Source: a virus
Lineage: Duplodnaviria > Heunggongvirae > Uroviricota > Caudoviricetes
IMG/VR virus record: IMGVR_UViG_2703718837_000001
Strand: one strand, 5' to 3'
Length of the DNA: 49,704 bases
Shown here: one piece after another, positions 35,206 to 40,430 of the stretch
Layout of the letters: every line of letters begins with the position of its first letter
How positions within the stretch are numbered: the stretch's first letter is position 1
The notes under the pieces: model-generated
The model's input: the letters and a program-made list of their open reading frames with translations, nothing else
What the model was told of the DNA's origin: nothing
The model's database searches: none
Program-made: the position numbers and the translations under genes

Positions 35206-36051
35206 TTAACCTCTGAATCCTGCCGGTATACCCCATTGTTCGTTATCTTTATTTTTGGCTAAAACCGCATTAAGAGCTTCGTTTACCGTCATGCAATGCG
35301 GCAGATTATCGAAGTTTGATACCCCGCCAATATCAGGAGAACGCTTGTTCTTCAGGTAAGCATATTTCCGCGCTGCCGCCTCTACTTTCTGCTTGAACTC
35401 ATGTTTTTGAGCGCGTTTTTTGGATAACCGCAGATTGTCAGCCTTTGCTTTTGCCTCAGCGATCCATGAAGTCAATTTTTTGAGTCTGGTCGTTCCGGCA
35501 CCGCCGGAAACTGATCTTTTTGTTTTTTTAACTTGTGACTTCTTATTCTTTATTGCCACGTCATCCTGACAGGGGGAGGGGGTATCATTTTGACATGGGG
35601 GTGTGGATAAAAAATTAAATAAAGCCAATGTCTTAGCGAGAACAGCTTTAACCTTGGTTGCCGCTGAAGAGATCTTTAATTTGCTTTCAATCAGCGCATT
35701 TTTGGCTTGTTGTGCGAAGGCCAAAAAGGATGGTGTAAACCGGTACAGGTTAGCGCGACGTTCACGGTGATCGCCGATAACAATCTCTACAGACAGGATT
35801 CCTTTGTTTACAGCTTCACGGAATGCACGAACGACGGTTGATTGGCTATAACCAGTTTCTGCCGCGATCAGGCGGTGAGGCTTGTGAATGAAGTATTCAC
35901 TGGTTGTTGCCGCGAGATTTGCACATTGCGACAGGATATGCCCGGCGCTACGGGATAGACCGGAGTGTGTTACAAAGCAGGCCAATTCATAGCCAGAAAA
36001 AGTAAAATCGCTCATCGTTATACAGCTCAGGAAAGTGACTTTAGCCAGCAT
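35206..36051 (-). CDS. repL: Lytic-replicon initiator-like HTH protein (RepL-like)
   Basis: 281 aa, immediately downstream of the KilA-N gene with an operator upstream, matching the P1 kilA-repL arrangement; HTH-like TGYSQSTVVRAFREAVNKGIL. Confidence 0.5.
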   Translation of the reverse strand: MLAKVTFLSCITMSDFTFSGYELACFVTHSGLSRSAGHILSQCANLAATTSEYFIHKPHRLIAAETGYSQSTVVRAFREAVNKGILSVEIVIGDHRERRANLYRFTPSFLAFAQQAKNALIESKLKISSAATKVKAVLAKTLALFNFLSTPPCQNDTPSPCQDDVAIKNKKSQVKKTKRSVSGGAGTTRLKKLTSWIAEAKAKADNLRLSKKRAQKHEFKQKVEAAARKYAYLKNKRSPDIGGVSNFDNLPHCMTVNEALNAVLAKNKDNEQWGIPAGFRG

Positions 36052-36080
36052 TACAATGCTGGTGGTTCTTACTACGTCTG

Positions 36081-36881
36081 TTAGTGCGTTGCCGCGACAG
36101 GTACCAGCACACCAGCATCAAGCAATCGCTTCATCAGCCACTGCTGACCTTTGCCGGTTATACGAGTCGTGAAAGAAATCCTGCTTCCATTGCTTGTATC
36201 GATCACGGTTTCTTTAAGGGTGAAATACCCACGGGATATGTATTCTTGTTTGGGGACGTTCCTGCGTTCACCGGTTGCGATCAGAATTCCGTTATCACGC
36301 AACCAGGTGAAGAGATAGTTTTGGCCCAGGCCGAGCACTTTGGCATAGTTGCCGATTAGAACCCCGCTGGCGGTAGCAACGCGTTCGGCGAATTCGACTT
36401 TAGGTGCATCCATCAGCATTTTTTGCTCCAGCCGTTGCTTTTGCTCTGCCAGGTCAGCAGCCAAACGGAGAGCTTCTGGGAGACTCTGCGGAATAGCAGG
36501 TTGTAATCTTCCAGCTCGATAGTCGATAAATGTCTGGTTTACCTTCAGCCGAAACGCGGGAGAAATCCAACCTGCGTACTCCACTGCGAGCAATTCATGG
36601 GCAAAAGTGCCGCCGCCACGGCCTTCGAACGAAACTATGCAATTCTGCATAGTTTCTTTTTCAAGCTCTTCGATGAGCTGTTTAGCTGACAGCGTTCTTA
36701 GCCATTGAGCTGGCGCTTTATGGGCACCGAGTCCGCTCGCTCTGTGTAGAGCATTAAGGTTGTAACGGCCAGCGCGGTCGGTCGTAATTTCAACACCACA
36801 AATAACGGGCAGAGTGGTTGAAGGATCGACATTTTGATGAAGGTTTGATATATTCATATCCGCATTGAATGTTTGTTGCAT
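36081..36881 (-). CDS. kilA: KilA-N domain protein with antirepressor-type C-terminal domain
   Basis: 266 aa; N-terminal KilA-N-like region (YNLNALHRASGLGAHKAPAQWLR); C-terminal domain paralogous to that of 37522-38535. Confidence 0.65.
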   Translation of the reverse strand: MQQTFNADMNISNLHQNVDPSTTLPVICGVEITTDRAGRYNLNALHRASGLGAHKAPAQWLRTLSAKQLIEELEKETMQNCIVSFEGRGGGTFAHELLAVEYAGWISPAFRLKVNQTFIDYRAGRLQPAIPQSLPEALRLAADLAEQKQRLEQKMLMDAPKVEFAERVATASGVLIGNYAKVLGLGQNYLFTWLRDNGILIATGERRNVPKQEYISRGYFTLKETVIDTSNGSRISFTTRITGKGQQWLMKRLLDAGVLVPVAATH

Positions 36882-36951
36882 TTTTTCTCCAAATTTGCAT
36901 CAACCTTCAATCACCAGCTCGAAATGGTGATTTCTTTGTACTCAGAAAACA

Positions 36952-36968
36952 AAAATTATTAGAGCAAA
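36952..36968 (-). promoter_or_regulatory. P1 C1-repressor operator-like site upstream of kilA-repL
   Basis: Reverse complement TTTGCTCTAATAATTTT (15/17 to consensus). Confidence 0.55.
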
Positions 36969-37521
36969 TTTTTCTGACTCGATCCAGATCGGGTTGGTCG
37001 ATCTGCTCAGAAACCTGCCAGTTCGCTGGCAGGTTTTTTTGTATAAGGCGTTTTTCAATGTGGATTTGTGGCTGGCTAAAACGAAAAAGGCCACAGGTTT
37101 TACCCTGTGGCCTGTTCGGGCGCAACGCGCTGCTGTTACACTGCGAACTAACGCCCTTCAATATTGTTATGCAATGTGGAGAAGTGAGGCAATCACTGAT
37201 GCCAACACAGAACTTGAAGCTCCGATGATGACAGGAACAATGATGTTGGTCACAATCCACTTGCAAGCTTTTTGAAGAGTCATTACGAAGCTCCGCATAC
37301 TTGCAACAGCAACTGCTTGCGGCTATCCTCTTGTTGTTCAGACATAAGGAATGCCCTCGCTGGTTGCCTCCATGCAACGTTGTGGCGAGGGTTTTTTCTG
37401 TCTGGAGGCTACGCATCCAGGAGTTCATAACCCCCGCATAACGTTGCGCCTCCCCTGAAAAACAGGGTTGGGCATATCGTACACATGCCTGTAATTTATG
37501 GCAAATCCTGGTCTGAATACG

Positions 37522-38535
37522 TTAAGACAAGGACGCCACTGGTTTTAACAAACCAGCATCAAGTAGCTTGCGAGTTAACCACTGCTGGCCTTTACCCGTT
37601 AATTGGGGCGTCAGCCGTATCTGGTAGCCATTTTCATCATCCAGCACCACTTCTTTCACCGTGAAATACCCGGCGTTGATGTACTGTTGGCGCGGTACGT
37701 TTTTGCGCGCTCCAAAAGCCATGAGAATGCCATTCTGGCGCAACCATGAGAAAAGGGCGTTTTGCTTAAGTCCAACGACCTTTGCAAAGTTCCCGATCAG
37801 GATTCCATTGGCCACTGATACCCGGTCGGCAAAATCGACTTTAGGGGCTGCGGCCACCAGCTGCTGTTCCAACTGCATTTTCTGTTCTGCCAACTCGGCA
37901 GCCAGGCGTAGAGCTTCTGGTAATGTTTGGGGGATCGATGGGGCAGGGGAGTTTGCCTGCTGCAATTCTTCCAGTTTGTCGATCAGCGAACGGCGGACCG
38001 CTTTCGATTCGCGCGCGGCGACTCGCAGGGCTTGTTTGTAGGTCATGGTTATAATATCTATTTCTGCGCCGTTTTTTTGACCTACGAAAATTTCGTAGGT
38101 TTCTCCTTCAAGCTCATCCTTAACTCTGGCAATGAAATCATTGTTGCGAACTGGTTTTTCGCTACATAATTTCCGTGCCTCATTGACCATCTTCAACAAT
38201 GTTTGGCTGTCGATTGTGTCTCCGGTGTTGGGGATGACATTCAGGGCTGGTGCTGGTTTTTCAACATTTAAATTATTACCGGTCATTCTATGTGCCTCCT
38301 TTCTCATTTCTGCTGCCACTGTTGCGTAACGTAGACGTCCTTGTTCAATCAAATAATCCCTGATCTCGGCTATCAGTAGCCTGTTGATCACAGCCTTATC
38401 TGTTCGGGTATAAAAACGTCTGGTTATCATGAAATAGTTGGCAATTGCGCCGGGGATCTCCCGTGTCGGCATACAGGTTGTATGCAAAGCGATCGCTTCG
38501 GCTATTTCATTACGGGTGACGAGAGGTTTTTTCAT
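37522..38535 (-). CDS. Antirepressor-like protein (Ant C-terminal domain)
   Basis: 337 aa; C-terminal 130 aa nearly colinear with the kilA C-terminus (PQTLPEALRLAAELAEQK...GKGQQWL); translationally coupled to an upstream 73-codon ORF. Confidence 0.65.
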   Translation of the reverse strand: MKKPLVTRNEIAEAIALHTTCMPTREIPGAIANYFMITRRFYTRTDKAVINRLLIAEIRDYLIEQGRLRYATVAAEMRKEAHRMTGNNLNVEKPAPALNVIPNTGDTIDSQTLLKMVNEARKLCSEKPVRNNDFIARVKDELEGETYEIFVGQKNGAEIDIITMTYKQALRVAARESKAVRRSLIDKLEELQQANSPAPSIPQTLPEALRLAAELAEQKMQLEQQLVAAAPKVDFADRVSVANGILIGNFAKVVGLKQNALFSWLRQNGILMAFGARKNVPRQQYINAGYFTVKEVVLDDENGYQIRLTPQLTGKGQQWLTRKLLDAGLLKPVASLS

Positions 38536-38753
38536 AAAACCCCCTGAACGTCGGCAGAGAAGGGGAGGTTCCAGTAACTAAGTGAATTGCGCGAGTTAGT
38601 CGAAAAACGGGCAGTAAAAATGCAGGGGCCATCAGGCAATTGAGAGCGTGCTTCGTCTTCTGTTGCTGCGATGACGAAGTGATAGTGGTGTTTTTTACAG
38701 GAATAGAAACGCCAGATGAATTCAGGGCGTGCGCAAGGATTGGCATTAACCAT
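38532..38753 (-). CDS. Small protein coupled to the antirepressor gene (icd-like position)
   Basis: 73 codons; ATG preceded by GAGG; stop overlaps the ant start (ATGA-type). Matches the position of icd in the P1 immI operon. Confidence 0.45.
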   Translation of the reverse strand: MVNANPCARPEFIWRFYSCKKHHYHFVIAATEDEARSQLPDGPCIFTARFSTNSRNSLSYWNLPFSADVQGVL

Positions 38754-38809
38754 AGTTACGGCCTCACAATCAGGTTTAACAACCTGCTACCCGCTGCTAA
38801 ACAGGTGGC

Positions 38810-38900
38810 AGGACGTGACGGGGTTAGCAGACTGGCGATTGTGAAACCAGCAGGCCGAAGCCTCCCCATCACGCCCCACCATAATTTGGGCGTAACGCGG
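38810..38900 (-). ncRNA. Candidate c4-like antisense RNA of the immI region
   Basis: Segment contains TCACAATC, complementary to GATTGTGA next to the SD of the 73-codon ORF, and CTGCTAACC, complementary to two GTTTAGCAG copies at 38794-38806 and 38961-38973 on the same transcript. Confidence 0.35.
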
Positions 38901-39067
38901 TTTTACGGACACAAAAATACCGCAATATCGGATATCTGCGGCTGTCCGCACAATCATTCAGGCTGCTAAACCCGGTCGCAGAATTTGCTACGACGGCGAA
39001 ACTATAAGCCTGAACGATTAAAAGGTCAATATGATGCGAAAAGATAGCATTCGCGACTTAAAAATAC

Positions 39068-39084
39068 AAATTTATTAGAGCAGG
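39068..39084 (-). promoter_or_regulatory. P1 C1-repressor operator-like site heading the immI-like operon
   Basis: Reverse complement CCTGCTCTAATAAATTT (15/17 to consensus). Confidence 0.55.
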
Positions 39085-39365
39085 TGAGTGTCGTGCAATA
39101 GATGTATTATTTGTGATGAAAAATAATGCAGAGGGATATTGTTACTTTAAGATGGATATCAATAATCGATACATAAATTAAGTTAGCAATAAACTATTAA
39201 CTTAAGAAATAATGCAGATGGTGAACTTATCTCTGACTTTTCAGCTATACACAATAAGTTAGGGATAGCTTATAAAAAGTTGATTAATTGATATAAGTCA
39301 ATGGGAGTATTCTTGTTTACTTTCCGTTCTCGTGGTAACTTCTCGCCGGTTTTTGTTTTTCTGGG

Positions 39366-39887
39366 ATGATTCTTATGTCTAAAAAGTATACTTTATGCGC
39401 TCTTGTTGTATCTGCAATTCTTCTTTCTGGGTGTCAATCTAGCGGTGCTGATTATGCTGCCGATGTTTATGATACCGCTCAATTGAATTCGAAGCAGGAA
39501 ACAAAGACAGTCAATATTATCTCTGTGCTTCCAGCTAAAGTGAAAGTTGATAATAAAGCTAATAAAGAAGCGGCACAGACATTTGGTGCGGTACTGGGAG
39601 CTGTTGCTGGGGGCGTTGCCGGTTATAATGTTAAAGGCACATCGACACTGGGTGCTGTAGCTGGCGGTACTGGTGGTGCGGCTCTTGGTGCAGCGACTGG
39701 TTCTTTGGTTAGTGATAAAACAATTGTTGAAGGTGTTTCACTGACTTATAAAGAAGGAACTAAGGTGTTCACTTCAACTCAAGTTGGTAAAGCATGCCAG
39801 TTTACAACGGGGCTTGCTGTGCTTATTTCAACTAAAGATAATGAAACTCGAATTCAGCCAAATGCTACTTGTCCAGAAAAGAAATAA
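39366..39887 (+). CDS. Lipoprotein with glycine-zipper region
   Basis: Lipobox LLSGC after a hydrophobic signal; Gly/Ala-rich GAVLGAVAGGVAG...GAVAGGTGGAALGAATG zipper; AT-rich. Confidence 0.7.
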   Translation: MILMSKKYTLCALVVSAILLSGCQSSGADYAADVYDTAQLNSKQETKTVNIISVLPAKVKVDNKANKEAAQTFGAVLGAVAGGVAGYNVKGTSTLGAVAGGTGGAALGAATGSLVSDKTIVEGVSLTYKEGTKVFTSTQVGKACQFTTGLAVLISTKDNETRIQPNATCPEKK

Positions 39888-39890
39888 TTT

Positions 39891-40430
39891 ATGAATAAAA
39901 TTATTTTATTTCTAATCTTTTCTACGTTTAGTGTAGGCACTGCCTTGGCTAACTCGTTGCAAAGTCAAATTGCTGCTATTGCTCAAGCGGAAAATGAAGG
40001 GCGAGCTAAAGAGCAGCAAGCTGAGGATGCCAGAAAAGAACTTATTCGCCAACAAGCACAAGCTGAACGTATTAGAAGAGAAAAAGCAGCATCTGCCGCT
40101 GCTGCACGCGAAAAACAGCGTGTTGCTGCAGAAAATGAACGTAGAGCGAAACGAGAAGCCGAGCTAGCAAATGACAAGAAGCGAGATCAAGCTTATGAGG
40201 ATGAGCTTCGCAAGCTGCAACTCGAAAGCATGAAACTCGAACTGCAAGCAAAAGCGGCTCGTGTCCAGCGAGAAAACGATTTTATAGAGCAGGAGTTGAA
40301 GGAGAGAGCAGCTAAGACAGATGTAATTCAGTCTGAGGCTGATGCAAATAGAAATATTTCTACAGGAAGTAAAGATTTACTGCAAAGCGAAGGAAAAGCT
40401 AGAGAGAAGAAAGCTAGCAGTTGGTGGTAG
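39891..40430 (+). CDS. Secreted coiled-coil protein
   Basis: Signal peptide MNKIILFLIFSTFSVGTALA; long charged helical region rich in E/R/K/A/Q. Confidence 0.6.
   Translation: MNKIILFLIFSTFSVGTALANSLQSQIAAIAQAENEGRAKEQQAEDARKELIRQQAQAERIRREKAASAAAAREKQRVAAENERRAKREAELANDKKRDQAYEDELRKLQLESMKLELQAKAARVQRENDFIEQELKERAAKTDVIQSEADANRNISTGSKDLLQSEGKAREKKASSWW

Follow-up and report, generated by a model that had tools for sequence, protein, structure and literature searches.

The minus-strand segment 37522-39084 almost certainly represents immI, the immunity operon of a plasmid prophage of the P1/P7 family (Punavirus) carried by E. coli, with the immunity specificity of P7. It lies within a 49,704-nucleotide stretch of viral DNA, which was analysed as a whole (the window) and is collinear with the 40.2-86.2 kb region of P7 at ~97% identity. 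By megablast, the part from the operator through ant was 97.1% identical to RCS47, 94.8% to P7 and 92.2% to P1. The GenBank features of P1 and P7 (operator, P1c4/P2c4, a1, b1, c4, a2, b2, icd, ant1, ant2) mapped onto it base for base. Downstream of immI we found KilA (266 aa) and RepL (281 aa), that is, the kilA-repL lytic replicon adjoins the operon; these neighbours and the structural genes are ~97% identical to those of P7. The c4/icd/ant circuit has been textbook knowledge since 1990 and is present in both Rfam and GenBank. A preliminary description, made from the letters alone, had proposed that this is an immI-like module in which a candidate c4 antisense RNA accompanies an operator, a leader, a 73-codon ORF and an antirepressor-like gene. 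Each of these parts was found on the minus strand where it had been placed, and in view of the Rfam matches, the homology to P7 and P1 and the covariation described below, the word "candidate" is no longer needed. The analysis identifies every part of the operon and shows the fold as well as a complementarity that covaries strictly. The module itself is an ordinary one that has already been described, and nothing in the sequence contradicts reading it as immI, the mechanism of which is set out in PMC8198154, PMC12197685 and PMC6906374.

The operon begins with the C1 repressor operator Op(c4) (formerly Op51), CCTGCTCTAATAAATTT, at 39068-39084 on the minus strand, as are all features below. It aligns to the annotated Op(c4) of P7, from which it differs by one base, and to Oc4 of P1. 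The site agrees with the C1 consensus ATTGCTCTAATAAATTT at 15 of 17 bases, both mismatches being the first two bases. Eight operator-like sites were observed in the window, compared to 0.39 expected. The equivalent of promoter P2c4 (P51a; 39041-39070) has hexamers identical to those annotated in P1, and its -35 element overlaps the operator. The equivalent of P1c4 (P51b; 39001-39029), TTGACC-17-TATAGT, maps onto the -35 and -10 elements of P1c4 in P1 and matched the consensus at 10 of 12 positions in a promoter consensus scan. Transcription would start from these two promoters, with the C1 operator overlapping the upstream one.

The genes of the operon were readily assigned. icd (38532-38753) encodes a host cell-division inhibitor of 73 aa that is 96-97% identical to Icd of P1, P7 and RCS47 and matches NCBIfam NF033153 (E 3e-14); the exact Icd sequence is found on ~1000 contigs. 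The antirepressor gene ant1 (37522-38535) encodes 337 aa with 92-98% identity to Ant1 of P1, P7 and RCS47. The protein contains the Pfam ANT/KilAC domain PF03374 (E 1e-30) and is exactly WP_061359697.1. The start codon of ant1 overlaps the stop codon of icd in the sequence ATGA (38535-38532), bearing out the coupling of the 73-codon ORF to the antirepressor ORF that had been suggested. AGGAGG precedes an internal in-frame start, Met84 of Ant1, which defines ant2 (37522-38286); its codon offset of 83 is the offset annotated for ant2 in P1, P7 and RCS47. Compared to Ant1 of RCS47, P7 and P1, the protein is shorter by 7-8 residues in a Pro/Ala-rich linker, and its C-terminus reads SLS instead of IG.

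This deletion and the changed C-terminus, together with a 0.5-kb foreign cassette that directly abuts the ant stop codon, might be taken to mean that the module has decayed or lost its function and no longer serves as an immunity switch. Moreover, the window covers just one contig of 49.7 kb, in which c1 is not expected. However, every ORF is intact, the promoters have the hexamers of P1, the operator is nearly that of P7, and c4 and its targets are those of P7. The Ant1 deletion is in frame and falls in a low-complexity linker that is variable among relatives. The cassette-bearing arrangement recurs in ~20-26 complete P1-like plasmids, and the neighbouring kilA, repL and structural genes show the high identity to P7 given above. 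We consider decay of the module very unlikely, and an intact immI operon remains the preferred reading.

The cassette just downstream of ant is rare and unannotated, and resembles a type I toxin-antitoxin system, with a 38-codon ORF (37283-37167) as putative toxin gene and a candidate antisense region on the plus strand at 37262-37406. Its boundaries were read from the conserved flanks. It had no match in Pfam or NCBIfam, and tblastn against plasmids returned near-identical unannotated copies only. A search of a 5.8-billion-protein set gave one match, which is unnamed. Assignment to Ldr/Rdl was not supported, the Rfam rdlD match being weak (21 bits, E 0.62).

The leader contains the gene for the 77-nt c4 antisense RNA (38804-38880), which is identical to the annotated c4 of P7 and is therefore the P7 allele. 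Note that the c4 ends were assigned by identity to the P7/P1 annotation alone. The Rfam model C4 (RF01695) was matched over its full length at 38886-38801 with 69.6 bits (gathering score 45). Together with c4-a1b1 (RF03163; 54.6 bits, gathering score 46.7), it was the sole RNA match at gathering level in an Rfam scan of the entire window. The predicted minimum free energy of c4 is -44.9 kcal/mol (z -5.7), with a long closing stem and with the loop UUCACAAUC and the joint CUGCUAA unpaired; the stems are 99.9-100% paired across 40 homologues. The hairpin loop carries b', CACAATC(+T), as TCACAATC at 38844-38837, and the single-stranded joint carries a', CTGCTAA (38830-38824), within CTGCTAACC (38830-38822). 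Both motifs lie inside the segment 38821-38880 in which they had been noted. The 5' end of that segment is exactly the 5' end of c4, whereas by homology to the P7/P1 annotation the 3' end is 17 nt further on.

Each c4 loop has two targets, and a precedes b in either pair. The a target GTTTAGCAG occurs twice in the leader, at 38971-38963 and at 38802-38794. The second copy (38794-38802; core TTAGCAG, 38800-38794) maps to the annotated a2 of P1. Both copies had been recognized in the preliminary description, but CTGCTAACC and GTTTAGCAG do not pair over all nine bases as it had implied: there are seven contiguous pairs (CTGCTAA/TTAGCAG), followed by one mismatch and one further pair. The b2 target, comprising GATTGTGA and its overlap with the icd Shine-Dalgarno sequence (38762-38771), maps to the annotated b2 of P1. 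GATTGTGA at 38771-38764 overlaps GAGG (38765-38762), 9 nt upstream of the icd ATG, and is the complement of TCACAATC that had been located at the ribosome binding site of the 73-codon ORF. The upstream copy complementing the b' loop, b1 (GATTGTG, 38955-38949), assigned from the P1 annotation and covariation, had been overlooked. The predicted b'-b2 duplex has 12 bp and spans the Shine-Dalgarno sequence. Its energy is -15.1 kcal/mol with the cognate c4, compared to -8.2 kcal/mol for the same b2 with the c4 of P1. The energies of the a' duplexes did not discriminate, as the short probe also paired at other, GC-rich positions, and the duplex comparison is one of b' values alone.

To what extent these pairings are preserved in relatives was apparent from 118 related loci, which carry two a alleles and eight b alleles. 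The c4 loops were exactly complementary to both target copies in every one of the 118; ACTTACG is an example of the other natural alleles of the b'/b2 pair. Among 40 distinct sequences, 100% of cells were paired and 8 of the 14 intermolecular pairs covaried, with zero one-sided changes; slid controls gave 27-54% pairing, compared to 100% in the true register. In these sequences, 6 of 7 b'-b2 pairs covaried with none broken, and b'-b1 pairing was 100% conserved, again with 6 of 7 pairs covarying. Pairing of a' with a2 was 100% conserved with two covarying pairs, and covariation of a1/b1 with c4 was 100%. Such exceptionless covariation amounts to a natural compensatory-mutation experiment, by which the predicted pairing is strongly supported. 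The allele survey further argues that P1-like plasmids may have at least 16 combinatorial immI specificities (2 x 8 reassorted alleles), beyond "P1" and "P7". Full-text literature searches found no description of such a multi-allele set of c4 specificities.

These data also bear on the idea that the leader merely contains chance motif matches without an RNA regulator, with regulation by the C1 operator alone. Single 7-8-mers are indeed common, the window containing TCACAATC 4 times and TTAGCAG/CTGCTAA 9 times, and in dinucleotide shuffles of the 247-nt leader one 7-mer with two complementary copies was present in 6.7% of cases. In contrast, two independent 7-mers, each with its reverse complement present twice, arose in only 56 of 20,000 shuffles (0.28%). 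By sequence alone the arrangement is thus moderately unlikely, and it is homology and covariation that are decisive. The E values of the Rfam hits (~1e-12) and the identity of c4 with the experimentally defined c4 of P7 leave a chance origin with a negligible probability, and the perfect three-way covariation of eight b alleles and two a alleles already refutes it. Equally improbable is regulation by a small protein (the early "C4 protein") made from a 56-codon ORF overlapping c4 (38957-38787): this ORF does begin with ATG, and X15639 still lists c4 as a CDS, but its start codon falls within b1 and is missing from 17 of the 40 distinct homologues, the length among homologues ranges from 10 to >66 codons and the variation tracks RNA pairing rather than codons, so that the protein reading was rejected. 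According to the accounts given in PMC8198154 and PMC12197685, c4 was established as an RNA by Citron & Schuster in 1990.

With c4 acting as an antisense RNA in an immI operon, the leader RNA would give rise to the 77-nt stem-loop, probably cut from its precursor by RNase P as in the published work on P1 and P7. The b' and a' sequences of c4 would then pair in trans with b2 and a2 on the mRNA of the same operon. Because b2 overlaps the icd Shine-Dalgarno sequence, binding of c4 would mask this site and block icd translation, in line with PMC8198154 and PMC12197685 and with the covariation. Expression of ant1 and ant2, with overlapping start and stop codons, would in turn need translation of icd, and the untranslated icd RNA would probably be subject to Rho-dependent termination, as in P1. 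The antirepressor, which from the published P1/P7 work is expected to bind C1, would therefore not be made. C1 repression would be kept, resulting in lysogeny or plasmid maintenance. The second target pair, a1/b1, is located upstream of c4 in the leader.

Comparison with the two reference systems defined the specificity of the module. The immI region of P7 (AF503408, 50853-52448) has the same gene order, with upf50.5/upf50.0 upstream and kilA-repL downstream. The c4 RNA, a1, b1, a2 and b2 of P7 are identical to those in the window, and thus the immunity specificity is P7-type. Ant1 of P7 has 348 aa, compared to 337 here, where the linker deletion is accompanied by an RCS47-like variable middle segment, and P7 lacks the 0.5-kb cassette that here separates ant from the kilA control region. 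P1 immI (Oc4/Op51, P51a/b; AF234172, 48140-49731) shares the architecture and has identical promoter hexamers, and its sites correspond one-to-one. However, every base in a', b', a1, b1, a2 and b2 that discriminates between P1 and P7 is that of P7, with two differences per element from P1. In P1, a is TTGACAG and b is GTTAGTG; here they are TTAGCAG and GATTGTG, and c4 is changed to match. Thus, the P1-like arrangement that had been proposed holds, but its specificity is not of the P1 type. Because the recognition sequences differ from those of P1, the module should be heteroimmune to P1. A further difference lies upstream, where P1 has the sim genes and this element has upf50.5, as in P7.

We also analyzed the leader upstream of c4. 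The c4-a1b1 motif (38955-39007; RF03163) consists of two hairpins, the second of which carries a1 (TTAGCAG, 38969-38963) in its loop. As the covariation of a1/b1 with c4 is as strict as that of the functional a2/b2, pairing between c4 and a1b1 appears to be under selection. A terminator-like element, recognized by fold and conservation, is located between b1 and c4 (38905-38949). It comprises the hairpin CCGCAGATATCCGATATTGCGG (38941-38920) followed by TATTTTT (38919-38913), with an outer stem enclosing both in the predicted fold. Across 40 distinct homologues the hairpin was 99% paired, and the T-rich tract was present in all 40, with at least five T in 38 and four T in 2. This element is the 3' part of a full-length match to the isrK model (RF01394) at 38994-38914, which scored 43.7 bits (E 2.5e-7) and thus remained below the gathering score of 50, as did the D6 isrK score (46.5 bits). 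The match indicates homology or a similar architecture rather than membership in the curated family.

A tentative possibility is that the leader encodes a second small RNA, IsrK-like and ~80 nt in length, which would contain a1 and b1 and serve as a decoy, or anti-antisense RNA, titrating c4 and setting the threshold for ant expression. Such a putative a1b1 RNA would be transcribed from the P51b-type promoter with a start site at ~38994 and would end at the hairpin and U-tract (38941-38913). We found no report in the literature of a short a1b1 RNA in P1/P7-type elements. The isrK-STnc1160-orf45-anrP locus of Gifsy-1 in Salmonella (RF01394; PMC4825925) offers a parallel. There, promoter-proximal hairpins precede a Rho-independent terminator, to which the putative terminator-like element of the window would correspond. 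In both loci a stable RNA, complementary to the first one, would be processed from further downstream, processing in the window being presumed from P1 and P7, and in both an antirepressor gene is coupled in translation to a small ORF. The short Gifsy-1 RNA reportedly activates translation, and the locus also feeds its output into the antiterminator AntQ (PMC4825925). The same paper compares the CI RNA of P4, an immunity sRNA processed from the leader of its own operon. CI resembles c4 in having two pairing sites (seqA/seqC) on either side of its own sequence, one upstream and the other downstream, but it acts by terminating transcription of replication genes prematurely and involves no icd/ant translational-coupling step. 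No P4 genes are present in this element.

In conclusion, the modest added value of this analysis is the survey of c4 loops with both target pairs. The survey also points to a selected role of the upstream a1/b1 sites. The contig can be annotated as a fragment of a P1/P7-like plasmid prophage with secondary immunity of the P7 type. At the level of immI, relatives of the P7 type should be excluded by the element, whereas those of the P1 type should not.

The window carries an immI-type operon, the immunity operon of P1/P7-like plasmid prophages, which spans 39084 to 37522 on the minus strand. At its upstream end, a 17-bp operator-like sequence, CCTGCTCTAATAAATTT (39084..39068), aligned to P7 Op(c4) and P1 Oc4. 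The two promoter-like elements that come next map to P1 P2c4 (P51a) and P1c4 (P51b); the P51b-type promoter (TTGACC-17-TATAGT, 39029..39001) was also recovered by a consensus scan independent of the P1 alignment. A leader of ~240 nt then precedes a 73-codon ORF (icd, 38753..38532), the stop of which is overlapped (ATGA) by the ATG of a 337-codon ORF (ant1, 38535..37522). An internal start at Met84 of Ant1, with AGGAGG, corresponds to ant2. Within the leader, the c4 recognition motifs b' (TCACAATC, 38844..38837) and a' (CTGCTAACC, 38830..38822) face the b2 target GATTGTGA (38771..38764), which overlaps the Shine-Dalgarno (SD) sequence GAGG 9 nt before the icd ATG, and two copies of the a target GTTTAGCAG (38971..38963 and 38802..38794), all on the minus strand. 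A preliminary description from sequence alone had placed every motif it named correctly. Of its 9-base a'/a complementarity, however, 7 contiguous bases hold, and beside its b target at 38771..38764 it had overlooked a second copy, b1 (GATTGTG, 38955..38949, minus). C1-operator-like sites occur eight times in the window, against 0.39 expected, one of them at kilA (36968..36952).

An Rfam scan of 36000-40000 identified the C4 antisense RNA (RF01695) at 38886..38801 with 69.6 bits (gathering score 45) and c4-a1b1 (RF03163) at 39007..38955 with 54.6 bits (gathering score 46.7). In the whole window, Rfam returned no further RNAs at gathering level, and no tRNA genes were found by ARAGORN or Rfam. 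By megablast against phage records, 37400-39300 was 97.1% identical to RCS47, 94.8% to P7 and 92.2% to P1, and the aligned features are annotated as c4, icd, ant1 and ant2. We retrieved the annotated regions of these three phages and aligned their leaders with the window. Each of the following features could be placed base for base on the window: P7 Op(c4), P1 Oc4, both P1 promoters, the P1 sites a1, b1, a2 and b2, and c4 as annotated in P1 and in P7 (misc_RNA, 77 nt). Thus, c4 corresponds to 38880..38804, with exactly the 5' end proposed in the preliminary description.

Compared with their P1, P7 and RCS47 counterparts, Icd shows 96-97% and Ant1 92-98% identity. Ant contains an ANT/KilAC domain, Icd matches the NCBIfam Icd-like model, and KilA and RepL are encoded downstream of ant. 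The exact Icd sequence was found on ~1000 contigs, and the exact Ant1 is an E. coli protein (WP_061359697.1 / KXP63089.1). The Pro/Ala-rich repeat of Ant1 just past the Ant2 start is 7-8 residues (PAPVASAT-like) shorter than in RCS47, P7 and P1 (window 38256-38258 region, after codon 93, alignment columns 94-101); the resulting 337-residue protein occurs on only 2 contigs in a collection of 15 billion proteins. The whole window is collinear with P7 40.2-86.2 kb at ~97% identity. Note that in megablast comparisons, P1, P7 or RCS47 account for only 70-76% of positions 1-25000; the first ~2.15 kb is without match, and several gaps occur besides. The immI copy itself is a system already known in detail for more than 30 years and present in curated databases.

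The leaders of P1 and P7 differ almost exclusively in the recognition elements, and the window carries the P7 base at every such position. Targets a1 and a2 read TTAGCAG in the window and TTGACAG in P1, and b1 and b2 read GATTGTG as opposed to GTTAGTG. Likewise, c4 a' is CTGCTAA instead of CTGTCAA and b' is CACAATC instead of CACTAAC; the 77-nt c4 is identical to that of P7. These differences are the basis of P1/P7 heteroimmunity (PMC6906374, PMC12197685). Judged by its recognition elements, the immI specificity of the window is P7-type. The b' loop was computed to form a 12-bp duplex with the icd start region of the window (-15.1 kcal/mol), covering the SD, and P1 c4 on the same region gave -8.2 kcal/mol.

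The computed fold of the 77-nt c4 (-44.9 kcal/mol, z = -5.7 relative to shuffles) consists of a 17-bp closing stem and two hairpins, leaving unpaired the loop UUCACAAUC (b') and the joint CUGCUAA (a'). This predicted structure agrees with published views of the recognition sequences as lying in accessible regions. A 56-codon ORF overlapping c4 (38957..38787), formerly annotated as a CDS for a C4 protein, shows no conservation as a coding sequence: the ATG falls within b1, 17 of 40 distinct homologues lack it, and the ORF is highly variable in length.

Could the complementarity be fortuitous? When the 247-nt leader was shuffled 20,000 times with dinucleotides preserved, 0.28% of the shuffles contained a pair of independent 7-mers that each had two complementary copies, so that the window sequence alone makes a moderate case against chance. 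Searching IMG/VR for the c4 core with no constraint on either loop, we obtained at least 120 loci, some contigs carrying two (e.g. L020 + L059, L017 + L083 and L062 + L070). Among the matches listed, the 118 loci with full flanks contained at least 2 a-alleles and at least 8 b-alleles (GATTGTG, ACTTACG, GTTAGTG, ACGAATG, GTACATG, GTTCAAG, ACTTGTG and ACCAAAG), which reassort freely in at least 14 of 16 combinations. In all 118 of these listed loci, b' was the exact complement of b1 and b2, and a' of a1 and a2; the combination of the window was the commonest (28/118). Formal counts were made on an alignment of 40 distinct homologues. Pairing in the c4-a2/b2 helices was 100%; of their 14 pairs, 8 were altered on both sides and none on one side only, and the c4-a1/b1 helices gave the same values. 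Sliding the partner by 1-3 columns lowered pairing to 27-54%. This covariation among relatives argues strongly for pairing and is, at the level of sequence, nature's version of the compensatory-mutation experiment that had been proposed. Together with the Rfam matches and the P1/P7 homology, it bears out the original reading of an immI-like module with a c4 antisense RNA.

Between b1 and c4, a hairpin, CCGCAGATATCCGATATTGCGG, is followed by TATTTTT (38941..38913, minus). All 40 distinct sequences have this hairpin and, behind it, a T-rich tract (at least 5 T in 38, 4 T in 2). The segment from the predicted P51b start (~38994) to the U-tract (38994..38914, minus) fits the isrK model of Rfam over its full length with 43.7 bits (E 2.5e-7), under the gathering score of 50; D6 matched with 46.5 bits. 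IsrK of Gifsy-1 is a short RNA that ends by termination and shares its promoter with a read-through mRNA; a processed RNA from further downstream, STnc1160, is complementary to IsrK, and translation of the antirepressor gene anrP is coupled to that of orf45 (PMC4825925). This layout parallels a1b1 plus terminator, c4 and icd-ant in the window. Because of the isrK match, the Gifsy-1 layout and the perfect a1/b1 covariation, a short a1b1 RNA that titrates c4 is a reasonable idea, if a tentative one and less likely than not.

Three codons before the ant stop, the window departs from P7, P1 and RCS47 (…PVA-SLS versus …PVA-IG). Here, the two terminal Ant codons (IG) have given way to SLS through a ~0.5-kb cassette (37034-37537, minus), which separates the ant1 stop from the control region of kilA. 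Homology resumes ~500 bp on, at the hairpin CCTGCCAGCGAACTGGCAGG-TTT (37033..37011, minus), which in P7 and RCS47 comes immediately after ant and probably serves as the operon terminator. The cassette displaces this hairpin 0.5 kb downstream, and therefore ant read-through would first meet a strong terminator with a T-run inside the cassette (37113..37088, minus). The cassette further contains a promoter-like site (37504..37476, minus), a structured leader of ~190 nt and a hydrophobic 38-codon ORF with GGAG (MTLQKACKWIVTNIIVPVIIGASSSVLASVIASLLHIA, 37283..37167, minus); its opposite strand bears a long hairpin with TTTTTT after it, ending near 37398. No phage record searched, P1, P7 and RCS47 included, contains the cassette. 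Among 5,426 complete E. coli genomes only 10 have it, as do 26 plasmid records, and it is essentially without annotation. Of the plasmid records, 21 were E. coli, E. albertii or Salmonella plasmids (identity at least 95%), 17 of which contain at least 80% of the cassette. Leader and ORF recur, at 71-74% identity of the DNA, in a Lelliottia plasmid and in a Pantoea plasmid of 4.5 kb (peptide MMFVNACKWIGNIILQIAIGVAGSVLASVILAHFHLA). Searches of Pfam, NCBIfam and proteins gave no family or named-protein match for the cassette, and an Rfam rdlD match reached only 21 bits. The layout resembles a type I toxin-antitoxin system; if it is one, the cassette would be a plausible plasmid-stabilising addition.

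In conclusion, the operon has intact, identified parts, the c4 fold and strictly conserved complementarity, with b2 over the SD, overlapping icd stop and ant1 start, and an ant2 start at Met84 with AGGAGG. By analogy with P1/P7 work (Citron & Schuster 1990 and later papers, as relayed in PMC8198154, PMC12197685 and the GenBank notes AF234172/AF503408), C1 would bind the operator and c4 would be excised from the precursor transcript. Its pairing would block icd translation and consequently ant expression, and Ant1/Ant2, when made, would inactivate C1. The set of c4 alleles points to an immI repertoire far beyond the two classical specificities of P1 and P7.
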